From sequence record MZ358387: 64,000 nucleotides of DNA. The stretch is one strand, 5' to 3'. The notes under the pieces are model-generated. The model searched no databases, was not told the DNA's origin, and saw nothing but the letters and a program-made list of their open reading frames with translations. A program made the translations under genes and the position numbers. How positions within the stretch are numbered: the stretch's first letter is position 1; every line of letters begins with the position of its first letter. This document shows positions 1,397 to 54,477 of the stretch, piece by piece. The stretch is from Shigella virus Moo19.

Positions 1397-1400
1397 TATG

Positions 1401-1436
1401 AGCCTCATACCTTCGGGTATGGGGCTTATTTTTTTC
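1401..1436 (+). terminator. rho-independent terminator after the RNAP II gene
   Basis: 11-bp stem agcctcatacc/ggtatggggct (one mismatch), loop ttcg, then TATTTTTTT. Confidence 0.7.
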
Positions 1437-2275: not shown

Positions 2276-2296
2276 GCTGATAGTTTTGTTTGGCTA

Positions 2297-2325
2297 AAGC
2301 CCTCCTTGTGAGGGCTTTCTTGTAT
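2297..2325 (+). terminator. terminator-like hairpin (weak U-tract)
   Basis: Stem aagccctc/gagggctt, loop cttgt, followed by 'tcttgtatc'. Confidence 0.35.
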
Positions 2326-2341: not shown

Positions 2342-2656
2342 GTGACTAACAAATTACGTGTATGGCATATCCCGCAAGTGCCAATGAAAGCATTCTTTGT
2401 AGAATGCGATAGCATTCAGGAAGCTGTTAAAATTCGTAGTGCACTGGCAGATTACGACTTGTTCCAGTATGAGAACAATGTCAAAGGTGATTACTGTAAC
2501 GCCAGCGGTATTCATATCTGGGATGAAACTCTGTCTGACCAAGACCTCATCGATATGGAACTAGACGACCGTTGGGTTGACTGGTTCTATGAAGATGAAA
2601 ATGAATACTTCGATGACCCAGAAGAATATCTGGAATGGCTTGCTACGCAATCCTGA
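2342..2656 (+). CDS. small highly acidic protein (hypothetical; DNA-mimic candidate)
   Basis: GTG 2342 preceded by GGAG at 2331-2334. C-terminal half is dense in D/E and aromatic residues ('DMELDDRWVDWFYEDENEYFDDPEEYLEW'). Confidence 0.45.
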   Translation: MTNKLRVWHIPQVPMKAFFVECDSIQEAVKIRSALADYDLFQYENNVKGDYCNASGIHIWDETLSDQDLIDMELDDRWVDWFYEDENEYFDDPEEYLEWLATQS

Positions 2657-2703: not shown

Positions 2704-2731
2704 GACCTCCCTAAATGGGAGGTCTTTTTTT
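2704..2731 (+). terminator. rho-independent terminator
   Basis: Stem gacctccc/gggaggtc, loop taaat, then TTTTTTT. Confidence 0.75.
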
Positions 2732-2758: not shown

Positions 2759-2959
2759 ATGAAATTTTCTGATTTACTCTGGGCAATTCTATTCCTGTTA
2801 CTTACTGCCTTTATTTATGGGGTAGTACTGCCTAATGCAGTATCTGCTTCAGATAGTATAAGTGTAGTAATTGGATTGATTGTTTCTATTATGTGGCCTG
2901 TTATAGCAGGTCGTGTTGTTTACCTTATCGTTAAGAAACGGAAGAAGAAACATGCGTAA
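2759..2959 (+). CDS. small membrane protein with two predicted TM helices
   Basis: ATG 2759 downstream of terminator 2704-2731. Two hydrophobic helices ('LLWAILFLLLTAFIYGVVL', 'VVIGLIVSIMWPVIAG') and a basic tail. Overlaps the next gene by 8 nt. Confidence 0.45.
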   Translation: MKFSDLLWAILFLLLTAFIYGVVLPNAVSASDSISVVIGLIVSIMWPVIAGRVVYLIVKKRKKKHA

Positions 2960-3788
2960 ATTTATTATAGGTTGTTTACTGGCAATAGTTGCAATGGCTA
3001 GTCTTACTGGTTGTTATCAACGAGTAGAGCCAGGTAATGTAGGTATTATCGTTAACCGTTTGGGTGACGATAAGGGCGTTGACCAACAAGTAAAAGGCGT
3101 AGGCCGTTACTGGATTGGTTGGAATGAAGACCTGTATACGTTCCCGACATTCAAACAGATGAAAACCTACGACGATAAGTTTTACTTCCAACTGTCGGAC
3201 GGTACTCAAATTGGCCATCAACTGGCTATCAGCTATAAGGTCAACCCGACCAAAGTAGCGACCATCTTCCAGACCTACCGTAAAGGTGTCGATGAAATCA
3301 CTGACCAGGATTTACGTCAGCGTATTGCCGATATCCTGAACCGTCAGGGTAACCTGATTAACACTGACAAGTTCATTGACGGTGGTAAGTCACGTTTGCT
3401 GGATAGTGTAGCTGATGCAGTTAAAAAAGAGATGGAGCCAGTCGGTATCGACATTATGGCTATCTCCTGGGTAGGTGCACCGGAATACCCGGACAACGTG
3501 AAGCGTGCAATTAACGCGAAAGTTGAAGCTACCCAGAAAACCCTGCAACGTGAGCAAGAAGTGCAACAGCGTATCGCTGAAGCAAATATGGCTCGTGAGC
3601 AAGCCAAAGGTGAAGCTGATGCCGTAGTACTGAAAGCAAAAGCAGAAGCTGATGCTATTAAGCTGCGTGGTGATGCACTTCGTGAAAACCCTGGTGTAAT
3701 GGAACTGGAAGCAATCAACAAGTGGAATGGTGTATTACCAACCACAATGATTCCAGGTGCAGCCACACCATTTGTGCCTGTTAAATAA
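2952..3788 (+). CDS. SPFH/band-7 (HflC/prohibitin-like) domain lipoprotein
   Basis: ATG 2952. Signal peptide with canonical lipobox 'MRKFIIGCLLAIVAMASLTGC'. SPFH-type core followed by an Ala/Glu/Lys-rich coiled coil ('QREQEVQQRIAEANMAREQAKGEADAVVLKAKAEADAIKLRGDA'). Confidence 0.65.
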   Translation: MRKFIIGCLLAIVAMASLTGCYQRVEPGNVGIIVNRLGDDKGVDQQVKGVGRYWIGWNEDLYTFPTFKQMKTYDDKFYFQLSDGTQIGHQLAISYKVNPTKVATIFQTYRKGVDEITDQDLRQRIADILNRQGNLINTDKFIDGGKSRLLDSVADAVKKEMEPVGIDIMAISWVGAPEYPDNVKRAINAKVEATQKTLQREQEVQQRIAEANMAREQAKGEADAVVLKAKAEADAIKLRGDALRENPGVMELEAINKWNGVLPTTMIPGAATPFVPVK

Positions 3789-3794
3789 CAATAA

Positions 3795-3821
3795 AACCCC
3801 CAGACATTGCTGGGGGTTTTT
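3795..3821 (+). terminator. rho-independent terminator
   Basis: 9-bp GC-rich stem 'aacccccag'/'ctgggggtt' with loop 'acattg', followed by TTTTT. Confidence 0.75.
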
Positions 3822-3837
3822 ACGTCTGGAAAGTGTA

Positions 3838-4188
3838 ATGGAAAAGAACCGCAGGAAGACACTCATTGAGCGTCTGCTTGCCCGTATCAAGATAATGGAT
3901 ATGGGCTATACCGTTAATGGTCAGCCAAGCCTATGCCACATCTGGACTGGTTCCCACTCTGGGAATGGTCGAGGTGGTCAATATGGCAGGATTTCCGTGA
4001 ATGGAGTTACCTCTGCTACACATATTGTGGCCTATACCCACTATCACGGTTACATCCCTTGCAAAATGCAGGTAGACCATCTCTGTAATAACCGTCTGTG
4101 CTGTAACCCGGAACATCTCGAACTGGTGACTCACCAAGAGAACCAGAGAAGAAGAGCTGCACGCCAAACTAAAGGTAAAAAGAAATGA
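3838..4188 (+). CDS. HNH homing endonuclease
   Basis: Start placed at ATG 3838 because the upstream in-frame ATG lies across the terminator. Motif 'HIWTGSHSGNGRGGQYGRISVNG...VDHLCNNRLCCNPEHLELVTHQEN'. Confidence 0.7.
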   Translation: MEKNRRKTLIERLLARIKIMDMGYTVNGQPSLCHIWTGSHSGNGRGGQYGRISVNGVTSATHIVAYTHYHGYIPCKMQVDHLCNNRLCCNPEHLELVTHQENQRRRAARQTKGKKK

Positions 4189-4922: not shown

Positions 4923-5274
4923 ACCATTAGATATTAATGATACCGGGCTGTGTGAAGCACTGCTCATCATGGGCGACGAAAAAGCCGTAGCCTGGGCATG
5001 GATTCGAGGTTATACCAAGAATCTGCTACAACAAATCGAAGAGTATCTCGGTGACACAGACTATAAATATCAGTCCAATGTCATTGAAGATGAATACGAC
5101 TTAATGGAACTCGCTGACGGTCACCAAAATGGTAACTGGGGCGATTACATGATTGTCGGTGGACTCTTTGAAGGTGAAAGAATTGACCCAACTTTTTGGA
5201 ACAAATATGCCCTCGTCCGTGGTATTCCTCGTGAAGAAATTTCAGAAAGTAATCTCTTCTCTTGCTCCTGTTAA
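4915..5274 (+). CDS. hypothetical protein
   Basis: ATG 4915 preceded by GGAG 4904-4907; overlaps the upstream stop by 8 nt. Acidic. Confidence 0.45.
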   Translation: MSEPLDINDTGLCEALLIMGDEKAVAWAWIRGYTKNLLQQIEEYLGDTDYKYQSNVIEDEYDLMELADGHQNGNWGDYMIVGGLFEGERIDPTFWNKYALVRGIPREEISESNLFSCSC

Positions 5275-5285
5275 GGAATGAAATA

Positions 5286-6341
5286 ATGTCAAACATCGAT
5301 TCACTTGTCGTGTGTAACTCAAGACAAGCTCGTAAATTTATCATCCGTGCATTGCAGGCAGGTAACGTACCGTTCCTGACCTCCTCACCCGGTATGGGTA
5401 AATCTGCAATGATTCATAGCATTGCAGAAGAATTTGGCATGAAGCTGATTGACCATCGTCTGTCTACTTCTGCCCCAGAAGACCTGTCTGGTCTGCCACG
5501 TTTCCGTCCAGATGGACGTGCAGAGTTTGCACCGTTTGCAGACCTGTTCCCACTGGAGGGTGACGAAGTACCCGAAGGTTATAACGGCTGGCTCCTATTC
5601 CTTGATGAGTTCAACTCAGCCAAGAAAGAAGTTGTTGCTGCTGCATACAAACTGATTCTCGACCGTATGACTGGTCAGAAGAAGCTGCATCCTCAAGTGA
5701 TGATTGTATGTGCTGGTAACAAACAAACTGACCGTGCAATCGTTAACCCAATGGGTACTGCAATGCAGTCTCGTGTTGTGCATCTGGAAATGGAAATCAA
5801 CTTCGACATCTTTGTCGAAGACGTAATGATTCCTCAGAAATGGGATGAGCGTTTAGTTGCATTCCTCCATGCTAATACGTCGTATCTGCATGACTTCGAC
5901 CCGGCACACAAGAACAAAACGTTCTGCTGTCCTCGTACCTGGGACTTCGTTAACGAAGACCTAAAGAACCAGCCTCCTGGTGCTCTGCCTGATGAAGATT
6001 CTATCTTCTATGCTGGTCACGTCACTGCTGGTAAGGCAACTGAGTTCGTTCAGTTTACTCAGGTATATAACCAACTGGTCACTATTGAGCAAGTGGTTAA
6101 AGACCCTAAAGAGGCACGTTTACCGAAAGATAACAACCTCTGCTGGGCAACTGTTACCTATCTGGCTAATAAGACCACGGTAGATAACTTCCCGGATGTA
6201 GTTGAGTATATCCAGCGTCTGGATAAGATGACTCACCGCATCCTGTACTTCCGTACTGTGCATAAAATCGTACCAGATGTTACTGGCCTCCCTGAATGGC
6301 GTAAAGCTGGTGCAGAACTGTCTCGCTACCTACACGGATAA
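5286..6341 (+). CDS. MoxR-like AAA+ ATPase
   Basis: ATG 5286 after AGGA. Walker A 'SSPGMGKSA'; MoxR-type Walker B/sensor 'LLFLDEFNSA'. Confidence 0.65.
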   Translation: MSNIDSLVVCNSRQARKFIIRALQAGNVPFLTSSPGMGKSAMIHSIAEEFGMKLIDHRLSTSAPEDLSGLPRFRPDGRAEFAPFADLFPLEGDEVPEGYNGWLLFLDEFNSAKKEVVAAAYKLILDRMTGQKKLHPQVMIVCAGNKQTDRAIVNPMGTAMQSRVVHLEMEINFDIFVEDVMIPQKWDERLVAFLHANTSYLHDFDPAHKNKTFCCPRTWDFVNEDLKNQPPGALPDEDSIFYAGHVTAGKATEFVQFTQVYNQLVTIEQVVKDPKEARLPKDNNLCWATVTYLANKTTVDNFPDVVEYIQRLDKMTHRILYFRTVHKIVPDVTGLPEWRKAGAELSRYLHG

Positions 6342-6344
6342 AAC

Positions 6345-7517
6345 ATGAACCAGATACCTCAGCACACTTTGACCGACGAGCAACTCATGCGAGAGTATGA
6401 CCGTACTCAGGCTCAGGCTTTTCTGGGCAAGAGTGCTGCGTTCTTTGGCTCACTACTGTGTAGTCTTAAATTCTCCTGGCAACGGGAGAATTGCGATACC
6501 GCTCAGACCGATGGTACTGAGCTTCAGTTTAACCCTGACTTCTTTGTCTGGTTAAAGCCTGAAACAAGAAAGACCGTGCTTATGCACGAGCTTTGGCATG
6601 TAGGTTATCTGCATGGTGTCCGTCAGGGTTCTCGTGACCCAGAGTTCTGGAACTATGCCTGTGACATCTACATTAACAACCAGTTAGAAGACGACGGCTA
6701 CTCCTTCGAGGGAGTAGAGAACTGCTGGAAAGACCCAAAATATAAAGGTTGGGTCGAAGAGGATATTTACGATGACCTTATGAAGAATCCCCACAAGAAG
6801 CCGAAGGCATTGGGGGCATTTGGAACAGGGTCTGGTGGAGATATGGTTAGCCCCACTTCGGGTTCATCTCCTGCAACTATCGTCAACAACGTAGTACGTG
6901 CACTGCAACAACAAAAACTGGCTGGTGGCACACTAGCTGGTACTGGTGCAGGCCGTATGCAAGAGGTGATTACCCAATTCCTCAAGCCAGTAGTTCCGTG
7001 GCAGCAAGTCCTGTTCGACTTCTTCACTGACATTGATGACACCAAGTACACCTGGGCAAGACCTAATCGTCGTTACCCGGATATGTACCTGCCATCTCTG
7101 GAAGATGATGAAGGTCGCTTACGACATCTGGCCTATTTCGAGGATGTCTCTGGTTCCATTAGCAATGCTGACTCTCTGCGTTTTAACTCAGAAGTGGCCT
7201 ATGTTAAGAGCCAGTTTAATCCGAAGAAAATGACCCTACTCACTTTCGATACTGTTATTCAGGACGAAATCGATATCACCGAAGAGGATACCTTTGAGGA
7301 GATTAAGATTACAGGCCGTGGAGGTACTTGCCTCAAGCCTGTTCGTGAGTGGATTATCAAGAACAAGCCAACTGCTGCTATCATCTTCTCTGATATGCAC
7401 GTTGCACCTATGGAAGAACTCCCGTTTGATATACCTATCATCTGGGTTTGTTTGGGAAACCGACATGCCACCGTGCCTTTCGGTGAAATCTTACATATTG
7501 ACCCAGGAATGAAATAA
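6345..7517 (+). CDS. VWA-like protein with N-terminal HExxH metallopeptidase-like motif (DUF2201-like partner of MoxR ATPases)
   Basis: Starts 4 nt after the ATPase gene. 'LMHELWHVGYLH' motif near the N-terminus; C-terminal half resembles a VWA/MIDAS-type domain ('YFEDVSGSIS'). Confidence 0.5.
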   Translation: MNQIPQHTLTDEQLMREYDRTQAQAFLGKSAAFFGSLLCSLKFSWQRENCDTAQTDGTELQFNPDFFVWLKPETRKTVLMHELWHVGYLHGVRQGSRDPEFWNYACDIYINNQLEDDGYSFEGVENCWKDPKYKGWVEEDIYDDLMKNPHKKPKALGAFGTGSGGDMVSPTSGSSPATIVNNVVRALQQQKLAGGTLAGTGAGRMQEVITQFLKPVVPWQQVLFDFFTDIDDTKYTWARPNRRYPDMYLPSLEDDEGRLRHLAYFEDVSGSISNADSLRFNSEVAYVKSQFNPKKMTLLTFDTVIQDEIDITEEDTFEEIKITGRGGTCLKPVREWIIKNKPTAAIIFSDMHVAPMEELPFDIPIIWVCLGNRHATVPFGEILHIDPGMK

Positions 7518-8306: not shown

Positions 8307-8567
8307 ATGGAAGTTTTATCTGCATTACTGGTTCTGGTAATTGCTCTTACAGCTTATCTGTTACCAACTATCATCGCATTCGTTCGTGGTCATGCTTCTA
8401 AGTGGGGCATTTTTATCACTAATTTACTGTTGGGCTGGTCACTGATTTTCTGGATTGTTGCACTGATTTGGTCACTGTCCAATAAAGGACAATCTCAGAC
8501 TACAATCGTTAACGTTGGAAGTGGTAACAGCTACAACGTGTCTCAAACGAGTCAGTCTGATAAGTAA
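8307..8567 (+). CDS. superinfection-immunity-like small membrane protein (Imm_superinfect-type)
   Basis: AGGAG 8296-8300 then ATG 8307. Two TM helices with the family-typical pattern 'YLLPTIIAFVRGHASKWGIFITNLLLGWSLIFWIVALIWSL'. Confidence 0.55.
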   Translation: MEVLSALLVLVIALTAYLLPTIIAFVRGHASKWGIFITNLLLGWSLIFWIVALIWSLSNKGQSQTTIVNVGSGNSYNVSQTSQSDK

Positions 8568-29026: not shown

Positions 29027-29108
29027 GGGGGAGTAGTCAAGCGGTCGAAGACGGCAGACTGTAAATCTGTTATCCCACACGGTAGTTCGAATCTACCCTC
29101 CCCCACCA
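29027..29108 (+). tRNA. tRNA-Tyr (anticodon GUA)
   Basis: 7-bp acceptor stem gggggag/ctccccc, T-loop TTCGAAT, anticodon arm 'gcagaCTGTAAAtctgt', encoded CCA. Anticodon arm resembles E. coli tRNA-Tyr as I recall it. Confidence 0.7.
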
Positions 29109-29109
29109 C

Positions 29110-29184
29110 GGTAAGTTAGCTAATTGGTGAAGCGGCTGACTGTTAATCAGTGATAGAGTGGTTCGAGTCCACTACTTACCGCCA
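29110..29184 (+). tRNA. tRNA-Asn (anticodon GUU)
   Basis: Acceptor ggtaagt/acttacc, anticodon loop 'ctGTTaa', T-arm agtgg-ttcgagt-ccact, encoded CCA. Starts 1 nt after tRNA-Tyr. Confidence 0.75.
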
Positions 29185-29189
29185 CATTA

Positions 29190-29266
29190 CGGAGTTTAGC
29201 TCAGTCTGGTAGAGCATCTGCTTTGGGAGCAGAGGGTCGTAGGTTCGAGTCCTGCAATTCCGACCA
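29190..29266 (+). tRNA. tRNA-Pro (anticodon UGG)
   Basis: Acceptor cggagtt/aattccg (one G-U), D-arm gctc...gagc, anticodon loop 'ttTGGga', T-loop ttcgagt, encoded CCA. Confidence 0.75.
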
Positions 29267-29272
29267 AACAAT

Positions 29273-29348
29273 TAGGGGTTAGTTCAGTTGGTAGAACATC
29301 GGACTTTGATTCCGAATGTCACAGGTTCGAATCCTGTACCCCTTGCCA
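29273..29348 (+). tRNA. tRNA-Gln (anticodon UUG)
   Basis: Acceptor taggggt/acccctt (1:72 mismatched), anticodon stem tcgga/tccga, loop 'ctTTGat', T-arm acagg-ttcgaat-cctgt, encoded CCA. Confidence 0.7.
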
Positions 29349-29350
29349 AA

Positions 29351-29426
29351 TGCTTCATAGCTTAGTAGGTAGAGCACACCCCTGATAAGGGTGAGGTCAT
29401 TGGTTCAAATCCAATAACGGACGCCC
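29351..29426 (+). tRNA. tRNA-Ile(GAU)-like element with no acceptor stem (possible pseudo-tRNA or non-canonical tRNA)
   Basis: Intact D-arm, anticodon arm 'cacccCTGATAAgggtg' and T-arm 'attgg-ttcaaat-ccaat', but 5' tgcttca cannot pair with 3' aacggac. Starts 2 nt after tRNA-Gln. Confidence 0.35.
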
Positions 29427-52793: not shown

Positions 52794-53294
52794 CTATTGT
52801 AAAAGTTTCCGGTCGGCCTTGATTTGGTTCCCCAACTCAATCAATTGGTTGTCACGGAGTCTAACAGTTGCCCTGAGTTCTTCAACCACTCGTCTGCCTT
52901 GTTCAAGACTGGAGTCGAGTTCGGCTGCATGGCTTGCAAGACTTCTGCACTCAAAGGTTCCGGCTTCGGCTTGACGTTTATATACGTCGGCTCTTTTGCT
53001 TGATTGCTGCATCCGGCTGTCGTAATCACTGCTAAGGCGAGCAAGCTCGCCTGCGTAATTACTCTCAGCCGTCTGCAATCTGGTAGTGAGCATACCGACT
53101 TCATAGCTGTGTTGTCTGTTAAGGACATCGTATTCACCCTTAAGTTTATTGTAGGCTTTCTGGTCTTCTACTTTCTGAGCATCCCACTTGGCCTGAACTT
53201 TATCCTGACCATTACTGGAACCCCAAAAGTAAATGGTGGCTCCCAAAGCCACCACTACCAGATAAGGCCAACCTTTAGAGATTAGCGTCATCAT
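52794..53294 (-). CDS. i-spanin (Rz-like)
   Basis: GGAGG RBS then ATG 53294. N-terminal TM '[17 protein letters not shown]' followed by a coiled coil. Confidence 0.55.
52841..53128 (-). CDS. o-spanin (Rz1-like lipoprotein) embedded in the i-spanin gene in another frame
   Basis: Hydrophobic signal '[14 protein letters not shown]' with lipobox Cys, then a Pro-rich mature part ('[11 protein letters not shown]...'). Start uncertain (53128 or 53104). Confidence 0.5.
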   Translation of the reverse strand: MSLTDNTAMKSVCSLPDCRRLRVITQASLLALAVITTAGCSNQAKEPTYINVKPKPEPLSAEVLQAMQPNSTPVLNKADEWLKNSGQLLDSVTTN

Positions 53295-53910
53295 TACATG
53301 CCTCCAGAGGCACATTACCAATACGGTTTGATATCCAGCCATACGTATAGTCAGGCATGTTTAACGAGGTGTAGTGATTAAGTTGTTTACCATCCAATAG
53401 CTTAATCATAGTCTTACAGGCTTCTACTTTGCCTCGTTTTTTCTGGAGTGCCCTATACGAGTTAATGGTTGCTGTACCAACTTTACCATCAACTTGTATT
53501 TTAGGGTAGTCTTTGCCATTACGACTAACGTCATTCAAAGACTCTTGAAGCCAACGTGCTGGACGTGGTGTCCCAGTGTTTACTCCAGCATCCACCAGCT
53601 TGTGGGTCACAGCAGGACTAATAGAAGCGAACTCAATAAAGTTTGGCTTGATAATGTAGTCATCAACATAAACTTCAGCAGCCATCTCTTTAGTAAGTCC
53701 TTTCATAGTCCCATCCCATCCGTATTTCTTTGCTAAGACTTCCTTGTGGGACTGGGCTACTTTCTTAGTTATCCCGTGATTAGTTTCCCCTCCTGGGTCT
53801 TTGGGGTCATTTACATAACCACCTTCCAGCATAAAAACGGAACCAAGAATGGCAGCAACTACTGCTCCCACTGCACCACCCCTGGTTGCTAGTTTTTTAT
53901 TTATTGCCAT
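53275..53910 (-). CDS. SAR endolysin, GH108-type N-acetylmuramidase
   Basis: AGAGGAGG RBS then ATG 53910. N-terminal Gly/Ala-rich weak TM 'GGAVGAVVAAILGSVFML' followed by 'EGGYVNDPKDPGGETNHGIT'. Confidence 0.7.
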   Translation of the reverse strand: MAINKKLATRGGAVGAVVAAILGSVFMLEGGYVNDPKDPGGETNHGITKKVAQSHKEVLAKKYGWDGTMKGLTKEMAAEVYVDDYIIKPNFIEFASISPAVTHKLVDAGVNTGTPRPARWLQESLNDVSRNGKDYPKIQVDGKVGTATINSYRALQKKRGKVEACKTMIKLLDGKQLNHYTSLNMPDYTYGWISNRIGNVPLEACNDDANL

Positions 53911-54163
53911 GATAGTCCTCCTCTTTAGGCTTTAAACGAATAAGCCTGCCAACGATGTTCAAGGCAAATAAGCCAATGGCAACACCTGAACCATGTGGAA
54001 TCTGGTCAAGCAGATGTCTTGGCAAACCTGAGAACATTGGCTGGATTATATCGACGGCAGAGAAGAGAATCAGACCAATAGTACTAATCTGGATAGAAGC
54101 CCATTTCCAGGCTCGTTTCCAGTTAGGTACTAGTTCAACCCTTTTGGTTAACCTGCGAACCAT
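53897..54163 (-). CDS. holin (two TM helices; pinholin candidate)
   Basis: TAAGGAGA RBS then ATG 54163. Two hydrophobic helices and a charged C-terminus; overlaps the endolysin start by 14 nt. Confidence 0.5.
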   Translation of the reverse strand: MVRRLTKRVELVPNWKRAWKWASIQISTIGLILFSAVDIIQPMFSGLPRHLLDQIPHGSGVAIGLFALNIVGRLIRLKPKEEDYHGNK

Positions 54164-54477
54164 GCGAAAATCTCCTTACGTGCTGCAACCAACAGACTTA
54201 AGATTGCACCTGCTGCTGCCCATACCCACTTACCAAAGATTCCTGCACCAACTACCTTGTGCTTAATGGTAATGAACTCTTCGATGGTAGGCTCATTTTT
54301 AGCAAGACTCTCTTCAACATTCTTAAGTCTGTTACTAACTTCAGCAACTGAGTCCTTAAGATTGGTGATGGAGTTTTCCAGCTTTGCTCGGTCATTCCTT
54401 TCACGTTCCTGGTTCTCGAACATGGTTTTAAATCGTTCCTCCAGTCGAGCCAGTAATACATCAGTGGGTTCAGACAT
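54148..54477 (-). CDS. C-terminally membrane-anchored coiled-coil protein (antiholin/lysis-regulator candidate)
   Basis: Cytoplasmic coiled coil then one C-terminal TM 'VVGAGIFGKWVWAAAGAILSLLVAA'. Start at ATG 54477; ORF-track start 54507 is GTG. Confidence 0.35.
   Translation of the reverse strand: MSEPTDVLLARLEERFKTMFENQERERNDRAKLENSITNLKDSVAEVSNRLKNVEESLAKNEPTIEEFITIKHKVVGAGIFGKWVWAAAGAILSLLVAARKEIFAWFAG

Follow-up and report, generated by a model that had tools for sequence, protein, structure and literature searches.

We analysed a stretch of 64,000 nucleotides (nt) from Shigella virus Moo19 (sequence record MZ358387), referred to here as the window, and examined two overlapping plus-strand genes at 2759-3788 that encode a small membrane protein and an SPFH/Band_7 lipoprotein. 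The phage is an N4-like podophage (Schitoviridae, Enquatrovirinae). The upstream gene (2759-2959, from the ATG at 2759 to the TAA ending at 2959; called the partner gene) was identified from its translation and its match to PHROG 1130, and encodes a 66-residue orthologue of N4 gp19. The downstream gene (2952-3788, from the ATG at 2952 to the TAA ending at 3788) encodes a 278-residue orthologue of N4 gp20, and was identified using Pfam, PHROG 200, an AlphaFold2 (AF2) model and Foldseek. The two proteins are 100% identical to the annotated Moo19 products UEN68826.1 ('membrane protein') and UEN68827.1 ('lipoprotein' or 'SPFH protein'), respectively. The comparisons described below show a genuine pair that is specific to phages, optional and widely exchanged among them.

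A preliminary description of this DNA had proposed that the downstream gene encodes an SPFH/Band_7 lipoprotein with the lipobox LTGC, and our results agree with both parts of this proposal. Band_7 (PF01145) matched residues 24-206 (nt 3021-3569) with E = 1.2e-22 and 81.2 bits against a cut-off of 23.6, and PHROG 200, labelled 'lipoprotein', matched with E = 5.6e-96. The N-terminus carries a textbook lipoprotein signal (2952-3014), with a signal peptide (residues 1-20) that begins with an MRK n-region and a 14-residue hydrophobic stretch (FIIGCLLAIVAMAS), and a lipobox LTGC whose Cys21 is encoded at 3012-3014 and is followed by Tyr at the +2 position. All elements of the pattern used for such signals, namely [LVI][ASTVI][GAS]C after a positively charged n-region and a hydrophobic h-region, are present. 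Cys21 is invariant in 32 of 32 aligned SPFH homologues, and a lipobox is found in every one of the 120 closest 90%-identity clusters. The protein is 81% identical to N4 gp20, and the ratio of nonsynonymous to synonymous substitution rates (dN/dS) of its gene, 0.04-0.08, indicates purifying selection. An alternative start at GTG 2913 was rejected, as homologues and the Moo19 annotation begin at the ATG. Two antisense open reading frames (ORFs) on the minus strand (3344-3862 and 2976-3221) matched no family in the PHROG library, the one library scanned for them; they lie opposite conserved codons under purifying selection and were therefore treated as shadow ORFs.

The AF2 model of the lipoprotein, built from 32 sequences, has a predicted local distance difference test score (pLDDT) of 74.8, and consists of an alpha/beta core (residues 21-178) followed by one uninterrupted coiled-coil helix of 65 residues (residues 181-245, nt 3492-3686). 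Beyond the helix, the alignment revealed a conserved C-terminal motif, K-W-N-G-x-L-P (residues 257-263, nt 3720-3740), that leads into a P-F tail. The model contains the alpha/beta core, long helix and C-terminal closure segment of the SPFH fold. Mean pLDDT falls below 60 in the last 30 residues, as might be expected of a segment that folds only in an oligomer. Foldseek searches against the PDB gave full-length matches to HflC, prohibitin, erlin, stomatin, HflK, QmcA and flotillin, all with a probability of 1.00, and also matched the vault protein. E-values of the top matches (HflC, prohibitin, erlin, stomatin and QmcA) ranged from 6e-14 to 1e-7, the best being HflC (7vhq_G, E = 6e-14), with prohibitin (8rrh) and QmcA (8z5g) also among the matches. 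Many phage and giant-virus Band_7 proteins were retrieved from the viral models in BFVD, and a sequence search of the PDB returned prohibitin-2 and HflK/C only. Orthology with HflK or HflC was rejected on the scores of the equivalog models TIGR01933 and TIGR01932 (15.7 versus 159.4 bits and 23.9 versus 134.4 bits). A single Band_7 gene, rather than two paralogues, is present in the cassette and its flanks, the part of the window scanned for SPFH genes.

The partner is predicted to cross the membrane twice. Hydropathy places a first transmembrane (TM) segment, TM1, at residues 6-24 and TM2 at residues 36-54 (assigned here to about residues 34-57), joined by a conserved loop of nine residues (P25-S33, PNAVSASDS) that is predicted to be periplasmic, and followed by a basic C-terminal tail (K59-A66, KKRKKKHA) that is predicted to be cytoplasmic; the protein is thus probably a helical hairpin with both termini inside (N-in/C-in). 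Y20, P25, S29, G39 and P47 are invariant in an alignment of 12 diverse copies, and the conserved region comprises the end of TM1, the short loop motif [LV]P-x-[LM]-[VI]-S-[AS]-x-[DS] and a proline in TM2. The match to PHROG 1130 ('membrane protein') has E = 4.3e-16, the closest sequence is N4 gp19 at 62% identity, and identity to the partner of Enterobacter phage SABI is 42%. The partner gene also evolves under purifying selection (dN/dS of 0.125 versus N4). A tblastn search of phage genomes with the 66-residue protein gave no match, probably owing to the low-complexity filter acting on its TM segments. A start at TTG 2657 was rejected, since the frame would then run through a terminator and both homologues and the Moo19 annotation begin at the ATG.

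The arrangement had been likened to an NfeD-stomatin operon in the preliminary description. In a Pfam scan at E <= 1, neither NfeD (PF01957) nor any other family rose above noise for the partner, and a PDB sequence search (E <= 10) retrieved no YbbJ or NfeD, the best matches being chance TM similarities with E > 0.3. Only nine residues follow TM2, which is too short for the oligonucleotide/oligosaccharide-binding (OB) fold that defines NfeD. An NfeD identity was therefore rejected, and the layout is an analogy only; judged by its sequence, the partner is a family of its own, distinct from NfeD.

The partner and SPFH ORFs overlap by 8 nt (ATGCGTAA, 2952-2959), as had been described earlier, and the overlap has the same length in N4 gp19/gp20 and in SABI. 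At this junction (2940-2959, plus strand), a purine-rich GGAAGAAGAA lies 3-12 nt 5' of the SPFH ATG at 2952, and the partner TAA occupies 2957-2959. The element is made of the Lys and Arg codons of the partner tail, and we read it as a putative Shine-Dalgarno-like element through which translation of the two genes would be coupled. The spacing between the two genes in related loci is -20, -16, -8, -4, -1 or +3 nt. Among 80 IMG/VR loci encoding a relative of the SPFH protein, about 76 carry a two-TM ORF of 66-78 residues that ends -20 to +3 nt from the SPFH start, the remaining loci being explained by contig ends or frameshifts. Members of the same partner family are encoded upstream of the SPFH gene in P88 (186-like), SSU5, Aeromonas phage Gekk3-15 and Burkholderia phage phiBt-TXDOH, and in PVP-SE1 an ORF of 54 residues lies between the two. 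The association also held in the reverse direction. Starting from three partner clusters in public assemblies, we found a Band_7 gene directly after the partner in 14 of 15 places, and the fifteenth, on the Yersinia pestis SSU5-like plasmid CP084346.1 (1501-2533), has an intact partner and an SPFH pseudogene split over four frames. The Moo19 genes show all the features of a PHROG 200 and PHROG 1130 pair, namely matches to both profiles, adjacency, the loop motif Y..-P-x-x-x-S and the proline in TM2.

A profile search with the SPFH family against 1.84 billion cluster representatives yielded 4662 matches at E <= 1e-3 and 384 at E <= 1e-30, and by sequence these relatives constitute a compact subfamily. 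An N-terminal extension of at least 40 residues is present in 20 of the 150 best representatives at the 50%-cluster level. The partner profile matches 13 of these extended proteins (E < 1e-3), and the loop motif P-x-x-[VILMFA]-S occurs in 16, of which 14 also have two TM segments. The order is always TM1, loop, TM2, cytoplasmic linker, hydrophobic segment with lipobox, and SPFH domain. In-frame fusions (P0260, P0271, P0273, P0278, P0287, P0395 and others; loci L111 and L113) come from prophages or phages of other Proteobacteria, and fused forms were found in a Rhodopseudomonas prophage, a 71.7-kb phage contig and a Cohaesibacter prophage. A further representative, P0063, which comes from enterobacterial elements, seems to be fused through a 1-nt frameshift inside the overlap. 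The natural fusions fix the predicted topology, with the partner N-in/C-in and the SPFH domain outside, and argue for a stoichiometric 1:1 physical partnership. We consider them to be the strongest evidence tying the partner to the SPFH subfamily.

The edges of the pair in the genome are sharp. The nearest record in the phage collection searched is Escherichia phage Jgk1 (82% over 71% of the first 25 kb), followed by the G7C-type Gamaleyaviruses (~79%). Homology to Jgk1 ends at 2740, just past a terminator, and restarts at 3838, which is the start codon of an HNH endonuclease gene (N4 gp22-like; 3838-4188, plus strand; HNH_3 PF13392, E = 4e-19). The interval between these edges is filled in Jgk1 by 333 bp of unrelated DNA containing a single small ORF. 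At the cassette position the Gamaleyavirus St11Ph5 has four small unrelated ORFs, and matches to G7C-type phages stop at about 2733. The hairpin at the left edge (2704-2731, plus strand, GACCUCCC-UAAAU-GGGAGGUC) follows the gp18-like gene, carries a U7 tract and has a folding free energy (dG) of -17.6 kcal/mol (z -4.2; 0 of 200 shuffles folded as well), and that at the right edge (3793-3821, plus strand, AAAACCCCCAG-ACAUUG-CUGGGGGUUUU) carries a U5 tract and has a dG of -18.5 kcal/mol (z -4.6; again 0 of 200 shuffles). The latter is symmetric, and could therefore act in both directions. The pair is accessory, with insertion or deletion edges that coincide with the terminators.

That the pair is bracketed by terminators and looks like an insulated cassette, as the preliminary description held, was supported with one qualification. 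The hairpins are strong and homology to Jgk1 breaks off beside them, but hairpins also follow the two preceding genes, so that bracketing is a property of the whole stretch and not of the cassette alone. One of these (1398-1429, plus strand) follows the RNAP2 subunit gene and has a U tract, and the other (2296-2318, plus strand) follows the decoration protein gene, lacks a U tract and is weaker, being only modestly more stable than shuffled sequences (z -1.7). Four successive transcription units each end in a hairpin, a density that is unusually high for one co-oriented block. The accessory status of the cassette among N4-like phages, which the preliminary description had proposed to test, was confirmed by its absence from Jgk1 and St11Ph5 and its presence in N4 and close relatives, in the 76-kb Klebsiella/Enterobacter N4-likes and in Erwinia N4-likes; the pair is not a conserved core gene pair of known function. 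It is also found in an Efbeekayvirus (PMC13239085).

The cassette is itself a mosaic. The SPFH ORF alone (2948-3788) is 90.6% identical in nucleotides and 97% in amino acids to that of SABI and is equally close to that of Klebsiella phage Tribble, and is therefore an allele of the Klebsiella/Enterobacter N4-likes and not of the N4 type. The partner region (2759-2947) is N4-type, and the flanks are of the Jgk1/Gamaleyavirus type. Such a pattern is that of a gene-precise allele swap. As a separate observation, the HNH nuclease adjoining the swapped cassette is of the homing type, and could drive local recombination.

The pair is not confined to N4-like phages. Using tblastn, we found the SPFH protein in 694 phage records outside Schitoviridae, including Kayvirus, Bruynoghevirus, rV5-like, Felix-O1-like and jumbo phages and phiCbK, and also P2/186-like, Stx2/phiP27, P1-like and SSU5-like elements. 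Through prophages and phage-plasmids, ~14% of complete E. coli genomes (737 of 5426) have a copy, about half of the copies being chromosomal and half on plasmids, and all contexts inspected are phage or prophage. Nearly always the surrounding genes belong to early or replication-recombination blocks, the pair lying between cox and replication gene A in P88, in the leftward operon toward xis-int in phiP27, after genes for SSB, an exonuclease and a recombinase in SSU5, and among polymerase, ligase and exonuclease genes in phiEa104 and PVP-SE1. The exception is Kayvirus, where the SPFH gene abuts holA and lysK. In Moo19, the gene order around the pair is colinear with N4 gp16-gp22, and thus with the N4 middle-gene block (middle genes gp16-gp24). 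In P1-like phage-plasmid contigs (L096, L099-L103), a Tad2-like gene (PF11195) lies ~0.7 kb downstream of the pair. Tad2 is known as an anti-Thoeris protein, and this neighbour suggests an accessory or counter-defence neighbourhood in the P1-like elements.

On which membrane the lipoprotein resides was considered from the residue at +2 and from the anchors used in the family. Of the 120 closest clusters, 61 have Y at +2, 51 have D, 5 have E, 2 have W and 1 has I, so that D, Y or W occurs in 114 of 120 close homologues. Tyr and Trp at this position are reported by Seydel, Gounon and Pugsley (1999) to retain lipoproteins. In E. coli, Asp at +2 is the signal for inner-membrane retention, and only His or Lys at +3 weakens it (PMC4623201). 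In about 10% of the SPFH family the Cys is missing and the N-terminus carries a plain TM anchor instead; MbpS of the Gram-positive phage genus Kayvirus, a distant relative, is likewise TM-anchored. Lipid and TM anchors alternate within the family and would therefore be interchangeable, which is sensible only on the cytoplasmic membrane. In addition, with a partner loop of nine residues and an SPFH domain that starts only three residues from the lipid, contact between the two would need a shared membrane. We infer from these observations that the SPFH lipoprotein lies on the periplasmic face of the inner membrane.

Taking as established the domain, lipobox, fold, gene coupling, co-inheritance, fusions, accessory status, phage restriction and early-module position, we propose a model in which the phage makes the two proteins in the middle (pre-late) phase of infection and they assemble into a two-component, split cage of the HflK/C kind on the periplasmic side of the inner membrane. 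To this model as a whole we give an even chance. The SPFH protein would be exported, lipidated on Cys21 and kept on the periplasmic face of the inner membrane, where the SPFH domain, the 65-residue helix and the KWNGxLP...PF tail would oligomerise into a ring or cage like those of HflK/C, prohibitin, stomatin and QmcA. Translational coupling would supply the partner at a ratio of about 1:1, and the partner would provide the membrane-spanning part that the lipid-anchored SPFH subunit lacks, touching it through the short conserved periplasmic loop, such that the pair would be equivalent to a split HflK/C-type protomer. The assembly would be installed before the late genes are expressed, and the cage would fence off a patch of inner membrane and its contents. 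Known SPFH cages scaffold membrane proteases or quality-control machinery, as in HflK/C-FtsH, prohibitin-m-AAA, stomatin-NfeD and erlin-endoplasmic-reticulum-associated degradation, and HflK/C is, to our knowledge, the only bacterial SPFH complex with the topology proposed here for the lipoprotein. Because protease scaffolding is a recurrent job of SPFH proteins and because of this shared topology, an FtsH-type inner-membrane quality-control machine may be picked as the client, with altered turnover or stability of membrane proteins as the outcome; this choice, like any client identity, is speculative and held with low confidence.

Several observations weigh against this model. The evidence for oligomerisation and for contact between the gp19-like and gp20-like proteins is indirect, and the structure prediction is that of a monomer (pLDDT 74.8) with a C-terminal tail of low confidence. 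The SPFH allele has been swapped without its partner, so that the interface must tolerate heterologous pairs. Across the wider SPFH family, where hosts and sorting rules may be different, +2 is mostly S or T. Distant phage SPFH genes are preceded by genes for unrelated small membrane proteins or by none: Kayvirus MbpV has one TM segment, the protein in phiCbK has three, that in Pseudomonas phage TL has a C-terminal TM segment, and phiEa104 has no such protein. The HflK/HflC equivalog scores are far below their cut-offs, and there is one SPFH gene. Finally, nothing links the pair to FtsH specifically, and searches of the available literature turned up no functional study of it.

A bolder form of the proposal would make the pair the prototype of a self-contained, phage-restricted membrane-compartment device, in which a lipid-anchored SPFH cage with a detachable two-helix fence is placed early in infection on the outer face of the host cytoplasmic membrane and captures or shields a machine of that membrane. 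N4-like, rV5-like, P2/186-like and lambdoid phages, P1-/SSU5-like phage-plasmids and alphaproteobacterial prophages would all deploy it. The machine would be, for instance, FtsH, with the cage as an HflK/C mimic, or the channel for incoming phage DNA. We think this bolder form rather unlikely. If true, it would represent a new mechanism of host takeover or of superinfection exclusion by membrane caging.

Superinfection exclusion or a block to entry was also considered, the periplasm-facing assembly, present before the late genes are expressed, hindering ejection of DNA by a second phage or protecting the cell from lysis from without. Exclusion proteins such as T4 Imm and Sp, P22 SieA and the lipoproteins Llp of T5 and Ltp of TP-J34 provide examples, and the pair resembles them in being accessory and horizontally mobile. 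In the contexts examined its position is that of early or middle expression, and the lipoprotein would sit, outside the cytoplasm, on the membrane through which an incoming genome must pass. The pair adjoins a P22 gp17-type gene (N4 gp18-like; 2342-2656, plus strand) that matches 'Superinfection exclusion gene product 17' (PF17420, E = 3e-46), and the PHROG category of the partner is 'moron, auxiliary metabolic gene and host takeover'. Exclusion by lipoproteins is well documented (PMC9586334, PMC3952083). However, SPFH proteins are not known for excluding phages, the literature searched yielded no paper linking them to phage exclusion or defence, and the PADLOC defence models gave no significant match to the pair. 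In temperate phages, the pair occupies lytic early operons and not the moron positions expressed in lysogens, and a cage over small membrane patches would be an odd block to entry. Moo19 already encodes a T4 Imm-type superinfection immunity protein in the middle-gene block (8307-8567, plus strand; Imm_superinfect PF14373, E = 1e-17), and it is this gene, not the pair, that matched Imm_superinfect. At the sequence level, family resemblance is all that speaks for exclusion or for FtsH modulation. On balance an exclusion function, which the preliminary description had called plausible, is the main rival to our model and seems to us rather unlikely. As a side observation on the gp18-like position, the longest ORF there in Jgk1 encodes 154 residues, ~50 more at the N-terminus, from a putative start codon.

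A role in lysis timing or membrane integrity is quite unlikely. The SPFH protein would here restrain a holin-like partner in the manner of an antiholin, or the pair would stabilise the energised membrane during the long N4-type latent period. With 66 residues, two TM segments, N-in/C-in topology and a highly basic C-terminus, the partner resembles class II holins, and in Kayvirus mbpS and mbpV lie beside holA and lysK, MbpV having been likened to holins by the authors (PMC7150955). The fit of the partner to class II holins is nevertheless to their generic topology alone, a two-TM hairpin with a basic tail; searches of Pfam and PHROGs placed it in no family of holins or spanins. The window encodes a canonical lysis cassette elsewhere, complete with Rz-like spanin, endolysin, holin and gp63, at 52797-54471 on the minus strand. 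Outside Kayvirus the pair lies in early or replication blocks, and the Gamaleyaviruses do without it.

It is very unlikely that the SPFH protein is an outer-membrane lipoprotein that works independently of the partner, on peptidoglycan, on the outer membrane or as a spanin-like protein, the gene overlap being merely compact packing. Tyr at +2 is not the canonical Asp signal, Ser or Thr is commonest at this position in the wider family, and the SPFH allele has been exchanged without its partner, all of which would suit such a protein. Set against these are the two-way co-occurrence and repeated in-frame fusions with an inner-membrane partner, the TM-anchored members of the family and the distant homologue in a phage of Gram-positive hosts that have no outer membrane, the Asp at +2 in 51 of 120 close homologues, and the Rz-like spanin encoded elsewhere. 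A literal NfeD-stomatin operon, which is suggested by a small membrane gene co-transcribed with an SPFH gene as in ybbJ-qmcA and by QmcA-YbbJ (8z5g) among the fold matches, is refuted at the family level by the searches described above, by the upstream position of the partner gene, by the lack of a soluble domain in its product and by its membership of PHROG 1130, and we regard it as extremely improbable.

Other features of the window complete the setting of the pair. The local gene order is RNAP2 subunit (143-1396), Ig-like decoration protein (1454-2275), P22-gp17-like protein, partner and SPFH gene pair, and HNH endonuclease, all on the plus strand. Farther downstream (5262-7517, plus strand) are a gene annotated as an ATPase in N4 and Moo19 (N4 gp24-like) and a gene for a DUF2201 metallopeptidase/VWA-like protein (N4 gp25-like). 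The latter protein matches PF13203 at 2e-64 and PF09967 at 1e-35, and is annotated 'HNH endonuclease' in N4, St11Ph5 and Moo19, a label that looks like a mis-annotation. A tRNA cluster lies at 29027-29415 (plus strand), where ARAGORN called tRNAs for Tyr, Asn, Pro and Gln. A fifth tRNA-like Rfam match at 29358-29415 (50 bits, model positions 8-63) was not called by ARAGORN, and may be a truncated or degenerate tRNA. An Rfam scan of the whole window found tRNAs only, distant from the cassette, and no match inside the cassette.

The SPFH assignment is not new in itself, as the Moo19 protein already carries the name 'SPFH protein', N4 gp20 is listed as 'lipoprotein' and the PHROG 200 family is large. 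What appears to be undescribed is a dedicated, non-NfeD, two-TM partner family that shows two-way co-occurrence and recurrent fusion with the SPFH gene, together with the restriction of the subfamily to phages, its early-module position and its behaviour as a terminator-delimited, allele-swapping cassette. The structures of SPFH cages (HflK/C, prohibitin, stomatin, flotillin, erlin) are understood, and their physiological roles in bacteria are vague. A compact phage version, with one lipid-anchored gene and a 66-residue partner, could be a tractable handle on such cages. The pair is dispensable in close relatives, yet strongly conserved, and is present in phages of the therapeutic type (N4-like, Kayvirus, rV5-like). 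Should it modulate FtsH, membrane integrity or secondary infection, there would be consequences for lysis-lysogeny decisions, competition between phages and the behaviour of therapeutic phages, and the widespread 'serine protease' and 'transposase' mis-annotations would be corrected. If it is phenotypically silent, it would be one more accessory gene without an assigned function.

The literature searched contained neither functional nor structural work on a phage SPFH protein. Genome papers mention the SPFH domain and call its role unclear (PMC8540360, PMC13239085), and the Moo19 and N4 papers searched do not discuss the gp19-like and gp20-like proteins; 'band 7' in the phiCbK paper refers to a gel band, not to the domain. 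The closest known counterparts are the orthologues N4 gp19 ('membrane protein') and gp20 ('lipoprotein'), which share the gene order from the RNAP2 subunit through the decoration and P22-gp17-like proteins and the pair to the HNH endonuclease. In temperate enterobacterial phages and elements (P88, phiP27/Stx2, P1-like and SSU5-like), PHROG 200 proteins are 61-66% identical to that of Moo19 and are accompanied by the same partner family. They have Asp and not Tyr at +2, are encoded in early lytic operons, and are often mis-annotated as 'serine protease' or 'transposase'. MbpS of Kayvirus (Staphylococcus phage K/MSA6) is more remote, being ~27-29% identical, and shares the C-terminal motif KWNGK.P and a small membrane gene that abuts its start (PMC7150955). 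MbpS differs in having a TM anchor and no clear lipobox, and MbpV, with one TM segment and a long charged tail, is not recognisably related to the Moo19 partner. A role of the Kayvirus proteins in the secretion of Tgl has been a matter of speculation (PMC7150955).

Among cellular systems, SPFH-NfeD operons (QmcA-YbbJ, 8z5g; Pyrococcus PH1511/PH1510) likewise combine an SPFH gene with a gene for a small membrane protein, and the fold match to QmcA has E = 1e-7. The partner gene is a co-oriented neighbour of the SPFH gene, as NfeD genes are, although adjacency alone does not define that family. Unlike NfeD, the phage partner has neither an OB fold nor an NfeD sequence signal, and the phage SPFH protein would be exported, whereas QmcA faces the cytoplasm. 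The best structural match is to HflK/HflC-FtsH (7vhp, 7vhq, 7wi3, 9cz2), which shares the SPFH core, the long helix and the C-terminal closure segment. By our reasoning, HflK/HflC and the phage protein would alike face the periplasm from the inner membrane, each with its anchor immediately before the SPFH domain. Identity is 15-20%, the phage has one SPFH gene, and any binding to FtsH is hypothetical. In the phage protein, a lipid anchor replaces the N-terminal TM helix of HflK/HflC, and TM helices are found instead on a separate protein of 66 residues.

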